64,000 nucleotides of DNA from Escherichia coli (lineage in GTDB: Bacteria > Pseudomonadota > Gammaproteobacteria > Enterobacterales > Enterobacteriaceae). Numbering within the stretch: position 1 is the stretch's first letter; each line of letters begins with the position of its first letter. The stretch lies in NCBI RefSeq assembly GCF_048403405.1, contig NZ_CP183129.1; one strand, given 5' to 3'. A program made the position numbers and the translations under genes. Under the pieces are notes generated by a model. It was not told where the DNA came from and ran no database searches. It saw only the letters and a list, made by a program, of their open reading frames with translations. Of the stretch, positions 1-54,872 are shown piece after piece.

Positions 1-1862
1 TGAATGGTGTCACGCCGCCAGCGGTGCAGCACCTGACCGCCGAAGTCACCGCAGACAGCGGGGAATATCAGGTGCTGGCGCGCTGGGACACGCCGAAGGT
101 GGTGAAGGGCGTGAGCTTCCTGCTCCGTCTGACCGTAACAGCGGATGACGGCAGTGAGCGGCTGGTCAGCACGGCCCGGACGGCGGAAACCACTTACCGC
201 TTCAGGCAGCTGGCGCTGGGGCGTTACACGCTGACGGTCCGGGCGGTAAATGCCCGGGGACAGCAGGGCGATCCGGCGTCGGTATCGTTCCGGATTAACG
301 CACCTGCAAAACCCGCCACCATTGAGCTGACGCCGGGGTATTTTCAGATAACGGCGGTCCCGCGTCTTGCGGTGTATGACCCGACGGTACAGTTTGAATT
401 CTGGTTCTCAGAAAAACGCATCACGAACACAGCACAGGTGGAAAAATCTGCCCGTTATCTGGGGACCGGCAGTCAGTGGACTGTCCAGGGGAGCCGGATT
501 AAGCCGGGGACGGATTTCTGGTTTTACGTGCGAAGCGTCAACCTGGTGGGAAAATCTGCTTTTGTGGAAGCCAGCGGGCAGCCCAGCAATGATGGTGAAG
601 GGTATCTGGAAATTTTCCGGGGGCTGATAGATGAGACGCTTCTGGGCCAGGCACTGAAAGAGCGCATTGATGCTTCAGCGCTGCGTACGGAGGTCACGCA
701 ACTGGAAGAAGACATCCGTCAGCGGATGGACACGGATATCGCAGAAGTGACCCGGAAAATCGGGAAGGCGGAAAACAGCCTCACGCAGCTGGTTGCGAAA
801 AAGAATGAGGACCAGACACTGGCCATCGCGCAGGTGAGCCAGAAAGTGGACCGGGTGAGCAGTGAAATCTCACAGACTGTCAGCCAGGGGCAGTCAGAAA
901 ACGCCCGACAGATAGCACAGGTCCGCCAGTACGTGGATAAAAAAGGGAGTGAAATTACCTCGACCACGGATAAAAAGCTGGGTGACCAGGCCGTGACCAT
1001 ACAGCAAATCCAGCGGGTTCAGTCAGACACGCGCAATGAGCTGAATGCCATGTATATGCTGAAGGTGCAGAAAACAAAAAACGGTATTCCCTATGTGGCC
1101 GGGATTGGCGCGGGGATTGAGGATGTTGATGGTCAGACCCTGAGTAACATTCTGCTGCAGGCCGATCGCATTGCGATGATTACCCCGGAGAACGGCAACA
1201 CCACGCCGCTGTTTGTGGCGCAGGGGAATCAGCTGTTCATGAACGACGTGTTCCTGAAGCGACTGTTTGCGGTGAGCATCACGTCATCCGGCAATCCTCC
1301 GACGTTTTCCCTGACGCCGGATGGCAGGCTGACAGCCCGCAATGCGGATATCAGTGGAGCCATCATGGCGAATACCGGCACGCTCAATAATGTCACCATT
1401 AACAAGAACTGTGTCATCAGAGGGAAACTGTCTGCAAACCAGATTGAAGGCGATCTCGTTAAAACAGTGGGTAAGGCTTTCCCTCGTGACTCCCGTGCAC
1501 CGAAGCGTTGGCCATCAGGAACCATTACCGTCAGGGTTTATGACGATCAGCCGTTTAACCGGCAGATTGTTATTCCGGCGGTGGCTTTCAGCGGTGCCAG
1601 ACATGAGCGGGAGAACAGCGATACTTATTCGTCATGCCGCCTGATAGTGAAGAAAAACGGTGCTGAAATTTATAACCGTACCGCGATGGATAATACGCTG
1701 GTTTACAGTGGTGTTATTGATATGCCTGCTGGTCGCGGCGACATGACGCTGGAGTTTTCTGTATCAGCATGGTGGGTAAATGGCTGGTATCCCACAGCAA
1801 GTATCAGCGATTTGCTGGTTGTTGTGATGAAGAAAGCCACTGCAGGCATCACGATTAGCTGA
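1..1862 (+). CDS. J: Tail tip/host-specificity protein J, C-terminal part (5' end upstream of window)
   Basis: Open frame runs in from the window edge (track ORF 24..1862); translation resembles lambda gpJ-family; followed by lom. Confidence 0.85.
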
Positions 1863-1881
1863 ATTTTATAACCCATATACG

Positions 1882-1906
1882 GGCGCCAGAAATGGCGCCT
1901 TTTTTA
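1882..1906 (+). terminator. Intrinsic terminator after J
   Basis: GC hairpin GGCGCC-N6-GGCGCC followed by a T-run. Confidence 0.6.
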
Positions 1907-1929
1907 TTGCAGAAAAGCGAGAGGTAATT

Positions 1930-2529
1930 ATGCGTAAATTATGTGCAGCCATTTTGTCCGCAGCCATCTGTCTGTCCGTATCCGGTGCGCCTGCATGGGC
2001 GTCTGAACATCAGTCCACACTGAGCGCGGGGTATCTTCATGCCCGTACGAACGCTCCCGGCAGCGATAATCTGAACGGGATTAACGTGAAATACCGTTAT
2101 GAGTTTACGGACGCGCTGGGGCTGATTACGTCCTTCAGTTATGCCAATGCTGAGGATGAGCAAAAAACGCACTACAGCGATACCCGCTGGCATGAAGATT
2201 CCGTGCGTAACCGCTGGTTCAGCGTGATGGCGGGGCCGTCTGTACGCGTGAATGAATGGTTCAGCGCGTATGCGATGGTGGGTGTGGCTTACAGCCGTGT
2301 GTCGACTTTCTCCGGGGATTATCTCCGCGTAACTGACAACAAGGGGAAAACGCACGATGTGCTGACCGGAAGTGATGACGGTCGCCACAGCAACACGTCT
2401 CTGGCGTGGGGGGCTGGCGTGCAGTTTAACCCGACCGAATCCGTAACCATTGACCTTGCTTATGAAGGTTCCGGTAGTGGCGACTGGCGAACGGATGCAT
2501 TTATTGTTGGTATCGGATACCGTTTCTGA
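1930..2529 (+). CDS. lom: Lom/Ail/PagC-family outer-membrane protein (phage moron)
   Basis: 199 aa with N-terminal signal peptide; INVKYRYE and C-terminal YEGSGSGDWRTD..GYRF motifs as in lambda Lom. Confidence 0.9.
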   Translation: MRKLCAAILSAAICLSVSGAPAWASEHQSTLSAGYLHARTNAPGSDNLNGINVKYRYEFTDALGLITSFSYANAEDEQKTHYSDTRWHEDSVRNRWFSVMAGPSVRVNEWFSAYAMVGVAYSRVSTFSGDYLRVTDNKGKTHDVLTGSDDGRHSNTSLAWGAGVQFNPTESVTIDLAYEGSGSGDWRTDAFIVGIGYRF

Positions 2530-2635
2530 CAACAGACGCCGATTTATCTTCTGTAAATATTGTTATGATACGCAGGTTCATCCACCTTATGGGGTGAACT
2601 GCGTTTGAGGAAACGTAAAGTTACACTGTCCTGAA

Positions 2636-2667
2636 GCCCGTGGCGTCACTGCTGCGGGCTTTTTTTA
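2636..2667 (+). terminator. Intrinsic terminator after lom
   Basis: Hairpin AAGCCCG..CGGGCTT followed by TTTTTTT. Confidence 0.6.
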
Positions 2668-2680
2668 TTGGTGGAAAAGT

Positions 2681-5600
2681 ATGACAGTAAAAATTTCTGG
2701 CGTGCTTAAAGATGGCACAGGAAAACCAGTACAGAACTGCACCATTGTGCTGAAGGCCAGACGAACCAGCAGCACGGTGGTGGTGAACACGGTGGCCTCT
2801 GAAAATCCGGATGAAGCCGGACGTTACAGCATGGATGTTGAGCATGGCCAGTACAGCGTCACCCTGCTGGTTGAAGGTTTTCCGCCTTCACATGCCGGGA
2901 CCATTACCGTCTATGAAGGTTCCAGACCAGGTACGCTGAATGATTTTCTCGGTGCCATGACGGAGGATGATGTCCGACCGGAGGCACTGCGCCGCTTTGA
3001 GCAGATGGTGGAAGAGGTGTCACGTAACGCCTCCGCGGTTGCACAGAATACGGCAGCCGCGAAAAAATCAGCCAGCGATGCCAGTGCATCAGCCAGCGAG
3101 GCGGCAACTCATGCAACCGATGCTGCAGCCTCAGCACGTGCCGCCAGCACGTCAGCCGGACAGGCCGCGTCGTCGGCTCAGTCAGCGTCTTCCAGCGCAG
3201 GAACGGCATCGACAAAGGCCCGTGAAGCAGCAAAAAGTGCTGCTGCTGCAGAGTCATCAAAAAGCGCGGCAGCTACCAGCGCCAGTGCCGCGAAAACGTC
3301 AGAAACGAATGCCGCAGCATCACAAAAATCGGCAGCCACTTCTGCATCCACAGCGACCATGAAGGCGTCAGAAGCTGCCACCTCGGCACGGGGTGCGGCG
3401 GCCTCAAAAGAGGCAGCGAAATCTTCAGAAACGAATGCATCATCAAGTGCCAGTAGTGCAGCTTCCTCGGCAACGGCGGCAGGAAATTCCGCGAAGGCGG
3501 CAAAAACGTCCGAGACGAACGCTAAGTCTTCTGAAACAGCAGCGGGACAGAGCGCCTCAGCTGCGGCAGGTTCAAAAACAGCGGCTGCATTATCTGCCAG
3601 TGCCGCGTCAACAAGTGCCGGGCAGGCCTCAGCCAGTGCCACCGCCGCCGGAAAATCGGCAGAAAGCGCCGCATCATCCGCTTCAACAGCCACAACGAAG
3701 GCTGGCAAAGCCACTGAGCAAGCCACTGCAGCAGCGAGGTCTGCTTCTGCAGCAAAAACCTCTGAAACAAATGCAAAGACTTCAGCAGACAATGCTGCTT
3801 CCTCTAAGGCGGCAGCCGCATCGTCAGCCAGTTCAGCGGCGTCATCGGCATCATCTGCGTCTGCTTCAAAAGATGAGGCGACCAGACAAGCGTCAGCAGC
3901 GAAAGGTAGTGCCACGACAGCAACAACGAAAGCATCAGAGGCGGCAGGCAGTGCGACGGCTGCATCTCAGAGCAAAGTTGCTGCTGAATCCGCGGCAACG
4001 CGCGCCGAGACAGCAGCAAAACGGGCAGAGGATATTGCATCCGCCGTGGCGCTGGAGGATGCGAGCACGACGAAAAAGGGGATAGTACAGCTCAGCAGTG
4101 CAACAAACAGCACCAGTGAAAAGCTGGCGGCAACGCCAAAGGCAGTTAAAACTGTTAAAGATAGTTCAGTTCAAAAAACTGGCGACACAATGGGAGGGCA
4201 GTTAAAAATCAGCACGATAAATGCTCTTCGAATATTCAACCAAGCCTTTGGCCTTATTTTTAGGCGTTCCGAAGATCATCTTCATCTTATTCCGACTAAT
4301 GAAGGGGAGGGGGAAAATGGAGACATCGGTTCATTAAGACCATTCTCTATAAACTTAAGATCAGGGTTGGTGTCCATCGGTAATGGACTAAAAGTTGGTG
4401 GTAGTGTTACTGGTAATTTGACCGGAAACGCAGATACTGCGACCAAGATCAAGACAGCACGTAAGATTGGGGGCGTGGCATTTGATGGATCGGCAGATAT
4501 CAACTTGCCTGGAGTCAACGCTACCGGTAATCAAAACACTACAGGTAATGCTGCGACCGCCACGAAACTTCAGGCAGCCAGAACGATTAACGGTGTGTCA
4601 TTTGATGGTAGTGCAAATATCACATTGACCCCTTCAAATATTGGGGCATTGGCATTAACTGGAGGGACTCTTTCAGGTGGTTTAACTGCTGCTGGTGAGG
4701 TTATTTCAAGGTCAGCAAATGGTCTGCGTATTGCCTATGGCAACTATGGATTCTTTATCCGAAATGATGGATCAAACACATATTTTATGTTGACAGATTC
4801 GGGTAACAGTCTTGGTACGCACAATAGCTTAAGGCCGTTTATAATTAGTAACCATACTGGCAATGTTACAATTGCAACTAAATTAAACGCGAGTGGTGGT
4901 ATCACTGGATCTTTATCGGGTAATGCAAGCACAGCAACCAAATTGCAAACTGCAAGGACAATTAACGGCGTAAAATTTGACGGCTCGGCAAATATTGAAG
5001 CGTTTCCGCCAGGTGTTCCGCTGCCGTGGCCATCAGATACACCACCTGCAGGTTATGCGATCATGCAGGGGCAGACGTTTGATAAGGCAGCATATCCGAA
5101 ACTGGCTATTGCCTATCCTTCAGGTGTTATTCCAGATATGCGCGGCTGGACAATCAAGGGCAAACCCGCCAGTGGCCGGGCCGTATTGTCTCAGGAACAG
5201 GACGGCATAAAATCGCACACCCACAGCGCCAGCGCATCCAGTACGGATTTGGGGACGAAAACCACATCGTCGTTTGATTACGGCACTAAATCCACGAATA
5301 ACACCGGGGCGCATACGCACAGTCTGAGTGGCTCTACGGGGTCTGCCGGTGTTCATACTCATGGTAATGGTATTCGTTGGCCAGGAGGCGGCGGTTCTGC
5401 GTTAGCATTTTATGATGGCGGTGGGTTCACTTATGTCCAGAATTCACAGTATCAAGTAAGCCCGGAGACTTCTTCCTATAGATCGTATTATCAACGTATT
5501 CAGACACAGTCAGCAGGTGCTCATACCCACTCGCTGTCTGGTACTGCAGCAAGTTCTGGCGCACATGCACATACTGTAGGTATTGGTGCGCATACGCACT

Positions 5601-5707
5601 CCGTTGCGATTGGTTCACATGGACACACCATCACCGTTAACGCTGCGGGTAACGCGGAAAACACCGTCAAAAACATCGCATTTAACTATATTGTGAGGCT
5701 TGCATAA
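2681..5707 (+). CDS. stf: Side tail fibre protein
   Basis: 1008 aa; N-terminus [22 protein letters not shown] and C-terminus ..[11 protein letters not shown] match lambda Stf as recalled; stop overlaps tfa start (TAATG). Confidence 0.9.
3040..4060. repeat. GC-rich Ala/Ser-rich repetitive coding region inside stf with recurring AAKTSETNA units
   Basis: Near-identical DNA blocks (..aaaacgtcagaaacgaatgc..) recur at ~3293, 3418, 3498, 3751. Confidence 0.7.
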
Positions 5708-6291
5708 TGGCATTCAGAATGAGTGAACAAGCACGGACCATAAAAATTTATAATCTGCTGGCCGGAACTAATGAATTTATTGGTGAAGGTGACGCATATA
5801 TTCCGCCTCATACAGGTCTGCCAGCAAACAGTACCGATATTGCACCACCAGATATTCCTGCTGGCTTTGTGGCTGTTTTCAACAGTGATGAGGCATCGTG
5901 GCATCTCGTTGAAGACCATCGGGGGAAAACGGTTTATGACGTAGCGTCAGGGGACGAGTTATTTATTTCTGAACTCGGTCCGTTACCGGAAAATGTTACC
6001 TGGTTATCGCCGGAAGGGGAGTTTCAGAAGTGGAACGGCACAGCCTGGGTGAAGGATACGGAAGCAGAAAAACTGTTCCGGATCCGGGAGGCGGAAGAAA
6101 CAAAAAACAACCTGATGCAGGTAGCCAGTGAGCATATTGCGCCGCTTCAGGATGCTGCAGATCTGGAAATTGCAACGGAGGAAGAAACCTCATTGCTGGA
6201 AGCCTGGAAAAAGTATCGGGTGTTGCTGAACCGTGTTGATACATCAACTGCACCTGATATTGAGTGGCCTACGAACCCTGTCAGGGAGTAA
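5707..6291 (+). CDS. tfa: Tail fibre assembly protein
   Basis: 194 aa; [38 protein letters not shown] matches lambda Tfa as recalled. Confidence 0.9.
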
Positions 6292-6342
6292 TCATTGGGA
6301 TTATGCCGCAGCACGTCTTAAGCAAGAACGTGCTGCGGTTGG
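6131..6342 (+). repeat. Direct repeat copy 1: tfa 3' end plus downstream 11-bp-stem palindrome
   Basis: About 210 bp repeated at 7182..7391; last ~95 bp nearly identical by eye. Confidence 0.85.
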
Positions 6343-6345
6343 ATG

Positions 6346-7014
6346 CTATTTTTTCCCTGAAGCGGAAAACATTACTACAGTACCTTGAACCTTGGTTTTA
6401 ACATTCTCGAAATGCTCTGAGAGTATATGTGTTAAGCCTTCTTCGGAATCTTTTGTGTTTGAAAAGATGCCTTTCTGATTGTAAATGCGCATCAGTTTTT
6501 GACCGAAGCTATTGTGCACAACTCCATCGCCAAGAATTGTGGCTCCGTATAGAGTTCCATCGTCAGTTAAGGCCTGCGCCGCATTGCGTATTACACAGCT
6601 TTTTGTAGATATATTTCCAGGCAGGCAGTGAAGAAGGTAAAACATGGAAATGGAATCAAATTGACCATGTAACGCCGCGGGATAAGGTTCAAAAACATCA
6701 TGGCTAATTTTATGTTTAATTTTTGATTCCCCAGCCCTTGTAGATGCCGCGTTCAGGCTAGCTTCGTTCAAATCCATTAAAGATATCAGACTACTCTCAG
6801 GTACGTGAGTAAGGTAAAACCCAGTTCCAACACCAATATCCAGATGGTTGTTACCTACATGTTCCAGAAAGTGTGGAAGAAGGTGTTCCTTTGTAGGACA
6901 TCCCCATGCAAGCCGATTTGATACTCCCAAAACCCACCAGTCATAAAGCTTTAGGGTAAGTGGTGTGTAAATTTTAGCCCCATCATCTGTGTTTTTTTTC
7001 ATTGATTTCACCAT
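6346..7014 (-). CDS. Class I SAM-dependent methyltransferase, substrate unknown (prophage cargo gene)
   Basis: Rossmann motif I LDIGVGTG and downstream acidic residue (LMDLNE); AT-rich by eye; a second ATG 4 codons in (MKKNT, end 7002) has the better SD (GGTGA). Confidence 0.7.
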   Translation of the reverse strand: MVKSMKKNTDDGAKIYTPLTLKLYDWWVLGVSNRLAWGCPTKEHLLPHFLEHVGNNHLDIGVGTGFYLTHVPESSLISLMDLNEASLNAASTRAGESKIKHKISHDVFEPYPAALHGQFDSISMFYLLHCLPGNISTKSCVIRNAAQALTDDGTLYGATILGDGVVHNSFGQKLMRIYNQKGIFSNTKDSEEGLTHILSEHFENVKTKVQGTVVMFSASGKK

Positions 7015-7070
7015 GTTATAGTTTTATTTGTGAATTAAATCAATTATGGCGATGAATTACAAGGGGTTAA

Positions 7071-7340
7071 ATGCTGCCGCAGCATAGCGATATTGAAATA
7101 GCCTGGTATGCTTCGATACAGCAGGAGCCGAATGGCTGGAAGACCGTCACCACACAGTTCTACATCCAGGAATTCAGTGAGTATATTGCGCCACTGCAGG
7201 ATGCTGTAGATCTGGAAATCGCAACGGAGGAAGAAAGATCGTTGCTGGAGGCATGGAATAAATATCGGGTATTGTTGAATCGTGTTGATACATCAACTGC
7301 ACCTGATATTGAGTGGCCTGCAAATCCTGTCAGGGAGTAA
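7071..7340 (+). pseudogene. tfa remnant: C-terminal ~55 codons of a tail fibre assembly gene fused to an unrelated N-terminus
   Basis: C-terminal translation ..[51 protein letters not shown] parallels the Tfa C-terminus. Confidence 0.55.
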
Positions 7341-7391
7341 TCATTGGGATTATGCCGCAGCACGTCTTAAGCAAGAACGTGCTGCGGTTGG
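7182..7391 (+). repeat. Direct repeat copy 2 (see 6131..6342)
   Basis: Same sequence block including the palindrome CCGCAGCACGT-N11-ACGTGCTGCGG. Confidence 0.85.
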
Positions 7392-7455
7392 CTGGTGAAC
7401 TTTCGATAGTGCGAGTATTGAATGATTTCCAGCCGTTACCGATTTTACGTGTTAA

Positions 7456-7704
7456 TTAGTGAACAAACCACTCGTCAGCAGACTCCCAGGTATCTTTCAG
7501 AGTTTCCTGAACAAAAGTTTTAGCTGAATCTTTATCGGCGGTGCGCGTAACAGAAAGGCCATCGTTGCTGGTAGCTTTTACGATCACCTCTACATCGTCA
7601 TAACGTTTACTGATGCGTCGGGTTAATTCTTCCTTTAACGCATCCACAGCACCGGTTGGCATTTTAGTCATTTTTTCTTTGGCTATGCAGATTTCAATAC
7701 GCAT
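7456..7704 (-). CDS. DinI-like protein (SOS-inducible, prophage-encoded)
   Basis: 82 aa; MRIE..IAK...GA(V/I)DAL..EL.RRI and C-terminal [13 protein letters not shown] match the DinI family. Confidence 0.85.
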
Positions 7705-7719
7705 AAAAGTCCCTCTACA

Positions 7720-7735
7720 CTGTGTTTGTATACAG
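7720..7735 (-). promoter_or_regulatory. LexA box (SOS operator) ahead of the dinI-like gene
   Basis: CTGT-N8-ACAG (cactgtgtttgtatacagta) 16 bp upstream of the start codon. Confidence 0.75.
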
Positions 7736-7747
7736 TATCATTTTTAA

Positions 7748-7763
7748 CTGTATGGATAAACAG
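7748..7763 (-). promoter_or_regulatory. Second LexA box in tandem
   Basis: CTGT-atggataa-ACAG. Confidence 0.65.
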
Positions 7764-7790
7764 TGTCAAGGGTGAAGGAAAGTGATTTTT

Positions 7791-7849
7791 TGGGGCATGC
7801 ATGGGGCAAAAATATTTGTTGTGGGGCATTTTGGGGCATGATTGGGACA
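7791..7849. repeat. Array of four perfect and one degenerate TGGGGCA direct repeats near the prophage-host junction
   Basis: TGGGGCA at 7791, 7802, 7822, 7832; TTGGGACA at 7842. Confidence 0.8.
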
Positions 7850-7951
7850 CTTTGTTACATATGAACTTTGCCGATTTTTATATGACATGGAAATACAACG
7901 CTTTGATTCTTCTAAATAAAAAACATGCTCTTGGGCGTTCTTTAGTGATTT

Positions 7952-8062
7952 TTAAAAATTCCGTATCACGCAGTTAAAGTGGCGGGCATACTCTTCAAGG
8001 CTGGTGATCCCCAACCGCACCCATTTAGGATGCGACCATTGCGGCAGACCGATGTAAATCAT
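7952..8062 (-). pseudogene. yecE: Truncated yecE (first ~32 codons retained, then disrupted by the prophage)
   Basis: Minus-strand translation [32 protein letters not shown] then diverges and stops; ATG overlaps yecD stop (ATGA). Confidence 0.6.
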
Positions 8063-8640
8063 AATGCGTTGAGGATCTCTTCCACACTGCGCACACGGGC
8101 GATGCGTGGGTAGATATGGTTGATGCTGTTATTGTGCTGCTCGGCGCTGGCGGCGCTGCAGGCGTCTTCGGCAATCACCAGATTAAAACCGAGTTCCCAG
8201 GCATTGCGGGCGGTGGATTCAACACCGATATTGGTCGAGATCCCACATAATACTATTGTATCGATACCCCGGCGGCGTAATTGCAACTCCAGATCCGTAC
8301 CGTAAAACGCACCCCATTGATGTTTGATGATTTCGATATCGCTGTCGGTTGCACCTAATGCAGCAGGATGTTGCCACCAGTTTTCGGGTAACACTTTAGC
8401 AGGGGAGGGGACATCAACCGGCTGTTTTAATGCTTCGGCATAATCGGCAGACCAGCCAACGCGCACCAGAAACACGGGCTGACCGCTCGCGCGAAATTTC
8501 GCCGCCAGCTTCCCGGCGCGATTAACCACCTCATCGGCAGTATGTGGACCTCCGGCAAAAGGTAAGATGCCTTCTTGTAAATCAATCACCACCAGCGCAG
8601 TGGTTTTAGCATTAAGTTCAAGCATGATGACTCCTGACAA
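8059..8640 (-). CDS. yecD: Isochorismatase-family hydrolase YecD
   Basis: 193-aa ORF (K-12 form starts at MLELNAK, 8625); position next to aspS. Confidence 0.85.
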
Positions 8641-8934
8641 AACAAAATCGTGCCTCTCACCTTAATGCGATTAGCCGATGGCGGAACGACAAATTTTGTT
8701 AATTTTTATGAGTTCGGGCAACACCTTTATAGCAAACTGGCGTAGAGTCTGATTTCAGGCCCGATATAAAGTGGTAACGAGGTGTTCCAGCGCGGGCCAG
8801 GCTCTTACGGTGCGGCAGAATTTCCAGTATAATAGCCGCCTTTTTTCATTCAGTTGTGACATACAGCTAACGCTGCGACTTGGTCACCTGCGCAGCAGGG
8901 GGCATCCGCCGGCAGCTAAGTTAAGGGATATCTC

Positions 8935-38599: not shown

Positions 38600-38900
38600 A
38601 AAAACCGCCTCAGTTCTTTCACCAGAACGGGCGGTTTTTAACATTTAAGCTGATGACCACCGCGCTTTTTATTGACCATTTTGCACGCAAACTGGAAAAC
38701 CTGGCGTCGTCATCTATTCTTAAAGGGCAAGGCATCTAAGCCTGCATTAATGCCAACTTTTAGCGCACGGCTCTCTCCCAAGAGCCATTTCCCTGGACCG
38801 AATACAGGAATCGTGTTCGGTCTCTTTTTATCTGTTAAAAGCCAGAAGCATTCCCTTCGCTGACTTTATAGTCAACCATAACACACACTCTACTGTCTGA
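38600..38900 (-). ncRNA. ryeA: RyeA (SraC) antisense sRNA overlapping SdsR (boundaries approximate)
   Basis: K-12 yebY-pphA intergenic locus encodes this overlapping sRNA pair; strong bidirectional terminator at ~38605..38640. Confidence 0.4.
38727..38829 (+). ncRNA. sdsR: SdsR (RyeB) sigma-S-dependent sRNA
   Basis: Sequence gcaaggc..gcctgcattaatgccaacttttagcgcacggctctctcccaagagccatttccctggaccgaatacaggaatcg.gttcggtctcttttt matches the remembered SdsR sequence; ends in hairpin + T-run. Confidence 0.7.
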
Positions 38901-53672: not shown

Positions 53673-54341
53673 TCCTTCCTCAATCTTGAGTAACCCCGTC
53701 GTTGAAGGGTTACTCAATTCATCCTGATTATACGCACTGCCATGGTGCAACTGCTTCAAATTAAAACTCTGGTCTGACTTCAAATAATTATCATATTATT
53801 TATTTGCGTAACGGGATATCAGAAAAAGATATTTAGCCCATTAATTTATTAGGATGTTTACATCGGATTTGTGATTAAGTGTGGTATTATTTATTAGCGA
53901 AACGTTTCTCTCTTGATTTTTTTGCGCATTCATCAATTTTTCTTATTTTAAATTTACAATACCTTTGGCGATTGACTTCTCTTTGGGGTGATCGATAGCC
54001 GTTAACTGACTGTTTTATGAGAAAAAGTGATATAACTTTTTATTCATTGCATAGCAGAAAATGTGATATTGCACGCACTATGTAATAACTTCTCCCACTG
54101 GCCTGGAACAACTGAACTTATTGAACTATGTTAGAAAATACGTCAGTTTAAGTATCTGCCTGAACTGGCAAGGTTAAGCACAATGATATATCGGCGCGTA
54201 TTCCGTTGCATAAGTGTGCAAAAAAAGTGGAAGACGTATCGAGATTTGTGCGTCTGATCGAGACATGTTTAAAAATGGCTTGCCATAATTAACGTTGTAT
54301 GTGATAACAGATTTCGGGTTAAACGAGGTACAGTTCTGTTT

Positions 54342-54485
54342 ATGTGTGGCATTTTCAGTAAAGAAGTCCTGAGTAAACACGTTGACGTTGAATACCGCTT
54401 CTCTGCCGAGCCTTATATTGGTGCCTCATGCAGTAATGTGTCAGTTTTATCTATGTTATGCCTGCGGGCGAAGAAAACAATCTAA
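54342..54485 (+). CDS. yobF: Small protein YobF (upstream of cspC)
   Basis: 47 codons ([33 protein letters not shown]...); read manually, not in ORF track. Confidence 0.75.
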
Positions 54486-54497
54486 GGAATTTTTCAA

Positions 54498-54707
54498 ATG
54501 GCAAAGATTAAAGGTCAGGTTAAGTGGTTCAACGAGTCTAAAGGTTTTGGCTTCATTACTCCGGCTGATGGCAGCAAAGACGTGTTCGTACACTTCTCTG
54601 CTATCCAGGGTAATGGTTTCAAAACTCTGGCTGAAGGTCAGAACGTTGAGTTCGAAATTCAGGACGGTCAGAAAGGTCCGGCAGCTGTTAACGTAACAGC
54701 TATCTGA
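54498..54707 (+). CDS. cspC: Cold-shock-domain protein CspC
   Basis: 69 aa; RNP1-like KGFGFI and VFVHF. Confidence 0.95.
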
Positions 54708-54753
54708 TCGAATCCACTGATCTGAAGTGTGAATACGCTTCAATCTCGCTATA

Positions 54754-54780
54754 AAGCCTCGTCGAATGCGAGGCTTTTTA
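54754..54780 (+). terminator. Intrinsic terminator after cspC
   Basis: GCCTCG-N6-GCGAGGC followed by TTTTT. Confidence 0.65.
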
Positions 54781-54872
54781 CTTTGCTTTATCTTCGCTCC
54801 AGTCGTTCGGATATTTGCCCGCCGCGTGATTCGCGTTACACTTGCGGCCTTTAGTATCCTGCCGGAGTTGTC

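Follow-up and report, generated by a model that had tools for sequence, protein, structure and literature searches.

Among the integration hotspots of lambdoid phages, Shiga-toxin phages included, the yecE gene of Escherichia coli is a textbook case; to our knowledge, no function has been assigned to its product, a DUF72 protein. One described occupant of this site is phiP27 (AJ298298/NC_003356), a Stx2e phage whose GenBank record annotates the same 11 bp, CACGCAGTTAA, as both attL and attR. Others are the yecE prophages of STEC O145:H28 and O26:H11, which include Stx1a, Stx2a, Stx2d, and non-Stx elements with a phi297/EH297-type integrase (PMC8112680, PMC5592225). For the Stx2 prophages integrated in yecE of O26:H11, the att sequence is CAYGCAGTTAA (PMC5592225), while Nakamura et al. 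defined the att of the O145:H28 yecE prophages as 21 bp (PMC8112680). In prophages of this group, int lies beside the 3' part of yecE, and dinI and the tail genes lie beside its 5' part.

We compared with these systems a 64,000-nucleotide stretch of E. coli DNA (the window), which carries on its minus strand a 36-codon open reading frame at positions 7952 to 8062, as seen in the sequence and the translated frames. An earlier note had described this frame as yecE interrupted after about 32 codons, diverging into phage-derived sequence and then stopping. The start of the frame is exactly as described there: the ATG (8062-8060) overlaps the TGA stop codon of yecD (8061-8059) as ATGA (8062-8059). 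Alignment bore out the N-terminal peptide given there as well, since all 32 of residues 1 to 32 are identical to those of YecE in PEC011, a close relative with an uninterrupted locus, and in the K-12 derivative DH1. At the nucleotide level, codons 1 to 32 match PEC011 yecE at 95 of 96 positions (blastn, E = 2e-43), far more than chance would give, the sole difference being a silent C/T at window position 7970 (yecE nucleotide 93). Identity collapses from yecE nucleotide 97, that is, at window position 7966 and below. The chromosomal 5' fragment of yecE (nucleotides 1 to 96) spans 7967 to 8062 on the minus strand, homology to uninterrupted yecE loci stopping at 7967, and the truncated frame consists of these 32 codons, four more from the phage (IRNF), and a TAA stop.

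The neighborhood is the expected one. Directly upstream of the fragment lies an intact yecD (8059 to 8625, minus strand), encoding an isochorismatase-family hydrolase and ending in the stop codon that overlaps the yecE ATG; aspS is divergent upstream of it, and the order beyond yecD (aspS, nudB, yebC, ruvC) is usual for E. coli. In the uninterrupted locus of PEC011 (L001), the order is yecD-yecE-yecN-cmoA-cmoB, and YecE has 272 residues. When the 64-kb window was searched for the rest of yecE by blastn and tblastn, just residues 1 to 35 were matched, at 8062 to 7958, all other hits having E > 1. The yecE sequence in the window is a gene fragment (pseudogene) and not a functional DUF72/UPF0759 member, because the complete DUF72 domain (about 272 amino acids) is missing: intact YecE matches DUF72 across residues 21 to 249, and the 36-residue product has no Pfam match. 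In related genomes, PGAP labels the same stretch a pseudogene with "missing C-terminus." The overlap with yecD is retained, so the remnant may still be translated as a 36-residue peptide; a terminator scan found none after the remnant frame.

The point at which yecE homology ends coincides with a known att core. The 11 bp at 7977 to 7967 (minus strand), TTAACTGCGTG, are common to attB and attP and are the reverse complement of CACGCAGTTAA, the attL/attR of phiP27; they also fit the O26:H11 sequence cited above, and the O145:H28 yecE prophage records carry the same central TTAACTGC. Beyond the core, positions 7785 to 7966 (minus strand) correspond to the phage P' arm of attR, as delimited by alignment with phiP27, CharmingMan, and MINF_1A. 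The arm of phiP27 aligns from 7966 to about 7785, including its TTTTAAAAATCAC block. In the window, phiP27, and CharmingMan, the arm is conserved for about 190 bp from the core, and homology then stops; it includes a conserved TTTTAAAAATCACTAAAGA.CGCCCAAGAGCA block, whose TAA ends the yecE remnant four codons after the core. These four codons encode IRNF in the window, TRQF in CharmingMan, and, as read directly from the sequence, TRLF in phiP27. Beyond about 190 bp from the core, the right end of phiP27 is unlike that of the window, with different genes and no dinI.

Within the arm, between 7791 and 7849 (minus strand), are five TG(C/T)CCCA repeats, with a 21-nt unit repeated at 41-bp spacing. 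Five of the 19 such sites in the 64-kb window fall within these 59 bp on one strand, against a chance expectation of about 1e-6 for the whole window. The repeats are kept in the arms of phiP27 and CharmingMan, 120 to 180 bp into the phage arm, and similar ones occur in the left arm, where it runs through the 3' end of int. Given this clustering and conservation, and the arm-binding domain found in the integrase of related prophages (see below), they are most likely candidate arm-type integrase sites.

The last phage gene before attR is a dinI-like gene (7456 to 7704, minus strand; Pfam DinI, E = 1.1e-19), whose counterparts in related genomes and phages bear the label DinI-like. Upstream of it, a promoter scan returned a promoter-like site (TTGACA, 18 nt, AAAAAT) at 7769-7740, and direct reading of the sequence revealed a LexA-box-like CTGTATACAAACACAG at 7735-7720, both on the minus strand. 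For the homologous region of VT1-Sakai, the annotation lists a promoter and a LexA site. The box ahead of the dinI-like gene suggests SOS control.

Taken as a whole, positions 1 to 7966 (plus strand) form the right end of a lambdoid prophage, with the 3' end of J, lom, a 1008-residue side tail fiber, tfa, a methyltransferase cassette, a partial tfa, dinI, and the P' arm. The junction is attR because this is the tail-side end of the prophage, of which the window holds just the last 7,966 bp. The frame does run into phage DNA before its stop, as the earlier note had it: a phiP27-type P' arm, followed by dinI and tail-fiber genes. All in all, we are nearly certain that positions 7952 to 8062 represent the attR of a lambdoid prophage integrated in yecE.

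Several other features of the window were recorded along the way. The 1008-residue side tail-fiber protein (2681-5707, plus strand) has a long, repetitive, low-complexity center rich in Ala, Ser, and Thr at about residues 120 to 480. A full-length match to Rfam IS009 lies inside the tail-fiber-assembly gene (6050-6248, plus strand; 225 bits, with a gathering score of 117). The methyltransferase gene (6346-7014, minus strand) encodes a class I SAM-dependent enzyme (Pfam Methyltransf_12/23/25), and the EC190329 prophage, 99.8% identical elsewhere, lacks an 829-bp segment that contains it (6346-7174). A 231-nt direct repeat flanks the segment (6115-6345 and 7164-7394; the copies are 90% identical) and represents a duplicated 3' end of tfa, a gene present as a full copy at 5707-6291 and a partial copy at 7071-7340. 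The segment has the look of a moron cassette that came or went through recombination between the tfa ends. From 8063 to 64000, the window consists of ordinary E. coli chromosomal DNA that is colinear with EC190329 from aspS through manX; the Rfam matches to be expected in this part are there, namely SraC/RyeA and SdsR/RyeB (38689-38833), STnc490 (20813-20936), and the cspA thermoregulator (54322-54782).

EC190329 and MINF_1A, the two complete genomes closest to the window, show the other end of the prophage; in both, the prophage is 45 to 50 kb long. EC190329 is 99.8% identical across window positions 1 to 6345, and MINF_1A is 99.8% identical across 7400 to 8700; over the junction, the relatives used for inference are 99.3 to 99.8% identical to the window. 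The best genome match to positions 1 to 12000 has 99.3% identity at 93% coverage. At the far end of the prophage, both relatives carry an excisionase gene, the gene for a 437-residue tyrosine integrase, and then yecE codons 33 to 272, yecN, cmoA, and cmoB, so that codons 33 to 272 sit 45 to 50 kb from the 5' fragment. This attL is the exact reciprocal of the window junction, with no yecE bases lost or duplicated apart from the core. In these relatives, the remainder of yecE does sit at the opposite prophage end, as the earlier note had predicted. The integrase matches Pfam Arm-DNA-bind_2 and Phage_integrase and is 95.6% identical to that of phiP27, 85% to that of CharmingMan, and 76% to the O145:H28 yecE integrases. 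The annotations of the EC190329 and MINF_1A prophages include no stx gene, unlike phiP27, which carries stx2e; the cargo of the window prophage lies mostly off the window. By analogy with these two relatives, the 3' part of yecE in the window's strain should be found about 37 to 42 kb left of window position 1, beside int and xis and followed by yecN-cmoA-cmoB.

Comparison of the junctions narrows the position of strand exchange. Written in the yecE sense, attB is GCCCGCCACT TTAACTG(T/C)GTG GAGGGC, the attR of the window is GCCCGCCACT TTAACTGCGTG ATACGG, and the attL of the relatives is ACCCGTCATG TTAACTGTGTG GAGGGC; attB and attP share the core TTAACTG(C/T)GTG. A dyad in attB, TGCCCGCCAC/GTGGAGGGCA, matching at 9 of 10 positions, flanks TTTAACTGY, the pattern expected of core-type sites around an exchange region; the attP dyad is weaker (6 of 12). 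In both related lysogens, EC190329 and MINF_1A, the base after TTAACTG is C in attR and T in attL. The same base of attB is T in the two closest prophage-free genomes and C in K-12 and three other lineages. CharmingMan has C in its attP; its record is unbroken across that site, running from int through ...CCCGTCATTTCAACTGCGTGACGCGG... to dinI, and it provides the one independent, if diverged, attP in the comparison. In the phiP27 lysogen, C is present at both junctions, possibly through mismatch repair or integration into a C-allele host as alternatives to the C/T exchange reading. Two other candidate sources of att sequence were set aside. The PhiR49_2 record was left out of the C/T argument since it was cut at prophage coordinates, starting with attL plus two host bases and ending just before the attR core, and its ends are not an independent attP. 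PhiR40_1 and mEp460-like phages have dinI in common with the window prophage, but a different integrase follows directly, and therefore a different att.

The simplest reading, which depends on one polymorphic base, is that attP had C, attB had T, and strands were exchanged leftward of that base, in the 7-bp TTAACTG (7977 to 7971). The C at window position 7970 would then come from the phage. This refines the breakpoint proposed in the earlier note: homology to yecE does end after codon 32, at the phiP27 att core, but exchange would lie inside codons 29 to 31 and not after codon 32, because the 32 codons finish with 11 nt of core common to phage and host.

The events at this locus may be reconstructed as follows. 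A phiP27-type tyrosine integrase, whose arm-binding domain is N-terminal and whose catalytic domain is C-terminal, would recombine the phage attP with the bacterial attB in yecE codons 29 to 32, exchanging strands in the 7-bp TTAACTG. The 32-codon 5' fragment of yecE is left in place with its yecD overlap kept and runs into the P' arm, where the conserved TTTTAAAAATCAC block gives a stop after four codons. In the window's strain, attL is expected to read ...CATGTTAACTG(T/C)GTGGAGGGCAAC, followed by yecE codons 33 to 272. Integration would inactivate yecE, since the whole prophage parts the N-terminal portion of DUF72 from the rest and the 3' part has no canonical start codon ahead of it.

It could be argued instead that integration swaps the 5' end of yecE without inactivating the gene: the left arm of the phage would supply a start and an N terminus, a 256-residue hybrid YecE would be made from the int transcript, and the 36-codon remnant would be a by-product. 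PGAP does annotate the attL hybrid as an intact 256-residue DUF72 protein (WP_042196262.1, "yecE" in EC190329; 4076-4846 in locus L003 and 2894-3664 in locus L007), and Pfam DUF72 still matches the hybrid, at 155 bits. Moreover, in the arm of every phage type examined, the yecE frame is open for 20 to 33 codons and encodes (T/A/C)RH(V/F/I)NCV, which resembles YecE residues 26 to 32. Yet the annotated start of the hybrid is an ATT that overlaps the integrase stop by 19 nt, and in the arm of MINF_1A and EC190329 there is no ATG, GTG, or TTG between the upstream in-frame stop and the junction. The phage-encoded leader peptides also differ wholly among phage types. YecE residues 1 to 32 pair with EF0366, a DUF72 protein of solved structure (1VPY), from residue 1 onward and account for about 20 positions at the start of the Pfam model; therefore, conserved domain sequence is lost in the hybrid. 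The RH.NCV likeness has a simpler explanation, core-type integrase binding sites present in both attP and attB. For these reasons, we rejected coding mimicry, in which the arm would preserve YecE 26 to 32 to rebuild the gene, as the main explanation of the likeness: the peptides upstream are unrelated and lack start codons. We regard the swap as quite improbable, and the 256-residue "yecE" of PGAP at attL is probably an annotation artifact. A fuller version, along the lines implied by the 256-residue "yecE" of PGAP, has integration rewire the gene: the remnant would give a yecD-coupled 36-residue peptide, and the 3' part, fused in frame to an open leader of phage origin that overlaps the int 3' end, would be made as a DUF72 protein with a swapped N terminus, controlled by the phage (int/SOS). 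This appears very improbable.

To place the breakpoint among E. coli genomes, we searched window positions 7400 to 8700 against 5,426 complete genomes. Nearly all of them match, about 5,000 just to query position 734, which is window position 7967, and in these the matched stretch is annotated as yecD and yecE. The full junction, with at least 80% of the query matched, is found in 282 genomes, where it is annotated as yecD, a pseudogene fragment, and a DinI-like protein; a junction like that of the window is thus carried by about 5% of complete E. coli genomes. A 140-nt probe centered on the site finds it unbroken in 4,903 of the 5,426, which puts occupied or otherwise disrupted sites at roughly 10%. 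In other strains, such as WCHEC020032, this core serves different prophages. Judged from these sequences, the yecE site is common to a diverged integrase family, with unrelated arms on the same core in WCHEC020032 and the O145:H28 prophages; the latter have the same target, an integrase just 76% identical, and the attR sequence TTAACTGCATGAC where the window type has TTAACTGCGTGATAC.

These comparisons also bear on whether yecE was cut by an unrelated deletion or rearrangement, with phage DNA, for example a degraded remnant, adjoining it by coincidence. Only one junction is visible in the window, and the tail-fiber region has been secondarily rearranged, with its duplicated tfa end and inserted methyltransferase cassette; both points speak for such an event. 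The breakpoint, however, falls exactly on the phiP27 att core, the adjoining 180 bp are a conserved P' arm, relatives with the same junction have an exact reciprocal attL from which no yecE bases are lost, and different prophages use this very core of yecE, which makes the coincidence highly implausible. A chimeric join of a prophage contig to the yecD region can be practically dismissed, for although prophage repeats are a common cause of misassembly, nothing specific points to it here, the same junction recurs in 282 independently assembled complete genomes, and it matches the published att site (PMC8112680, PMC5592225).

Integration into yecE resembles that of lambda in several respects: a tyrosine integrase with a separate arm-binding domain, an excisionase gene beside int, a probable short exchange region (7 bp, as deduced above) between putative, imperfect inverted core sites, and clustered putative arm-type repeats in a P' arm of roughly 190 bp. 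Unlike in lambda, the site is inside a coding gene, near its 5' end, and the gene is split, not spared; the sequences are unrelated to lambda att. The sole departure from the lambda paradigm is insertion into the 5' part of a protein-coding gene, a feature already well documented at yecE. The junction is an instance of the phenomenon already known from phiP27, phi297/EH297, and many other Stx and non-Stx prophages at yecE. It fixes the right boundary of the prophage at 7966/7967 and identifies the integration module as phiP27-type, and, from the base (C or T) at which attR and attL differ, strand exchange can be narrowed down to the 7-bp TTAACTG. Beyond annotation, that is, the boundary of the prophage, the type of its module, and the place where its other end should lie, the junction matters little.
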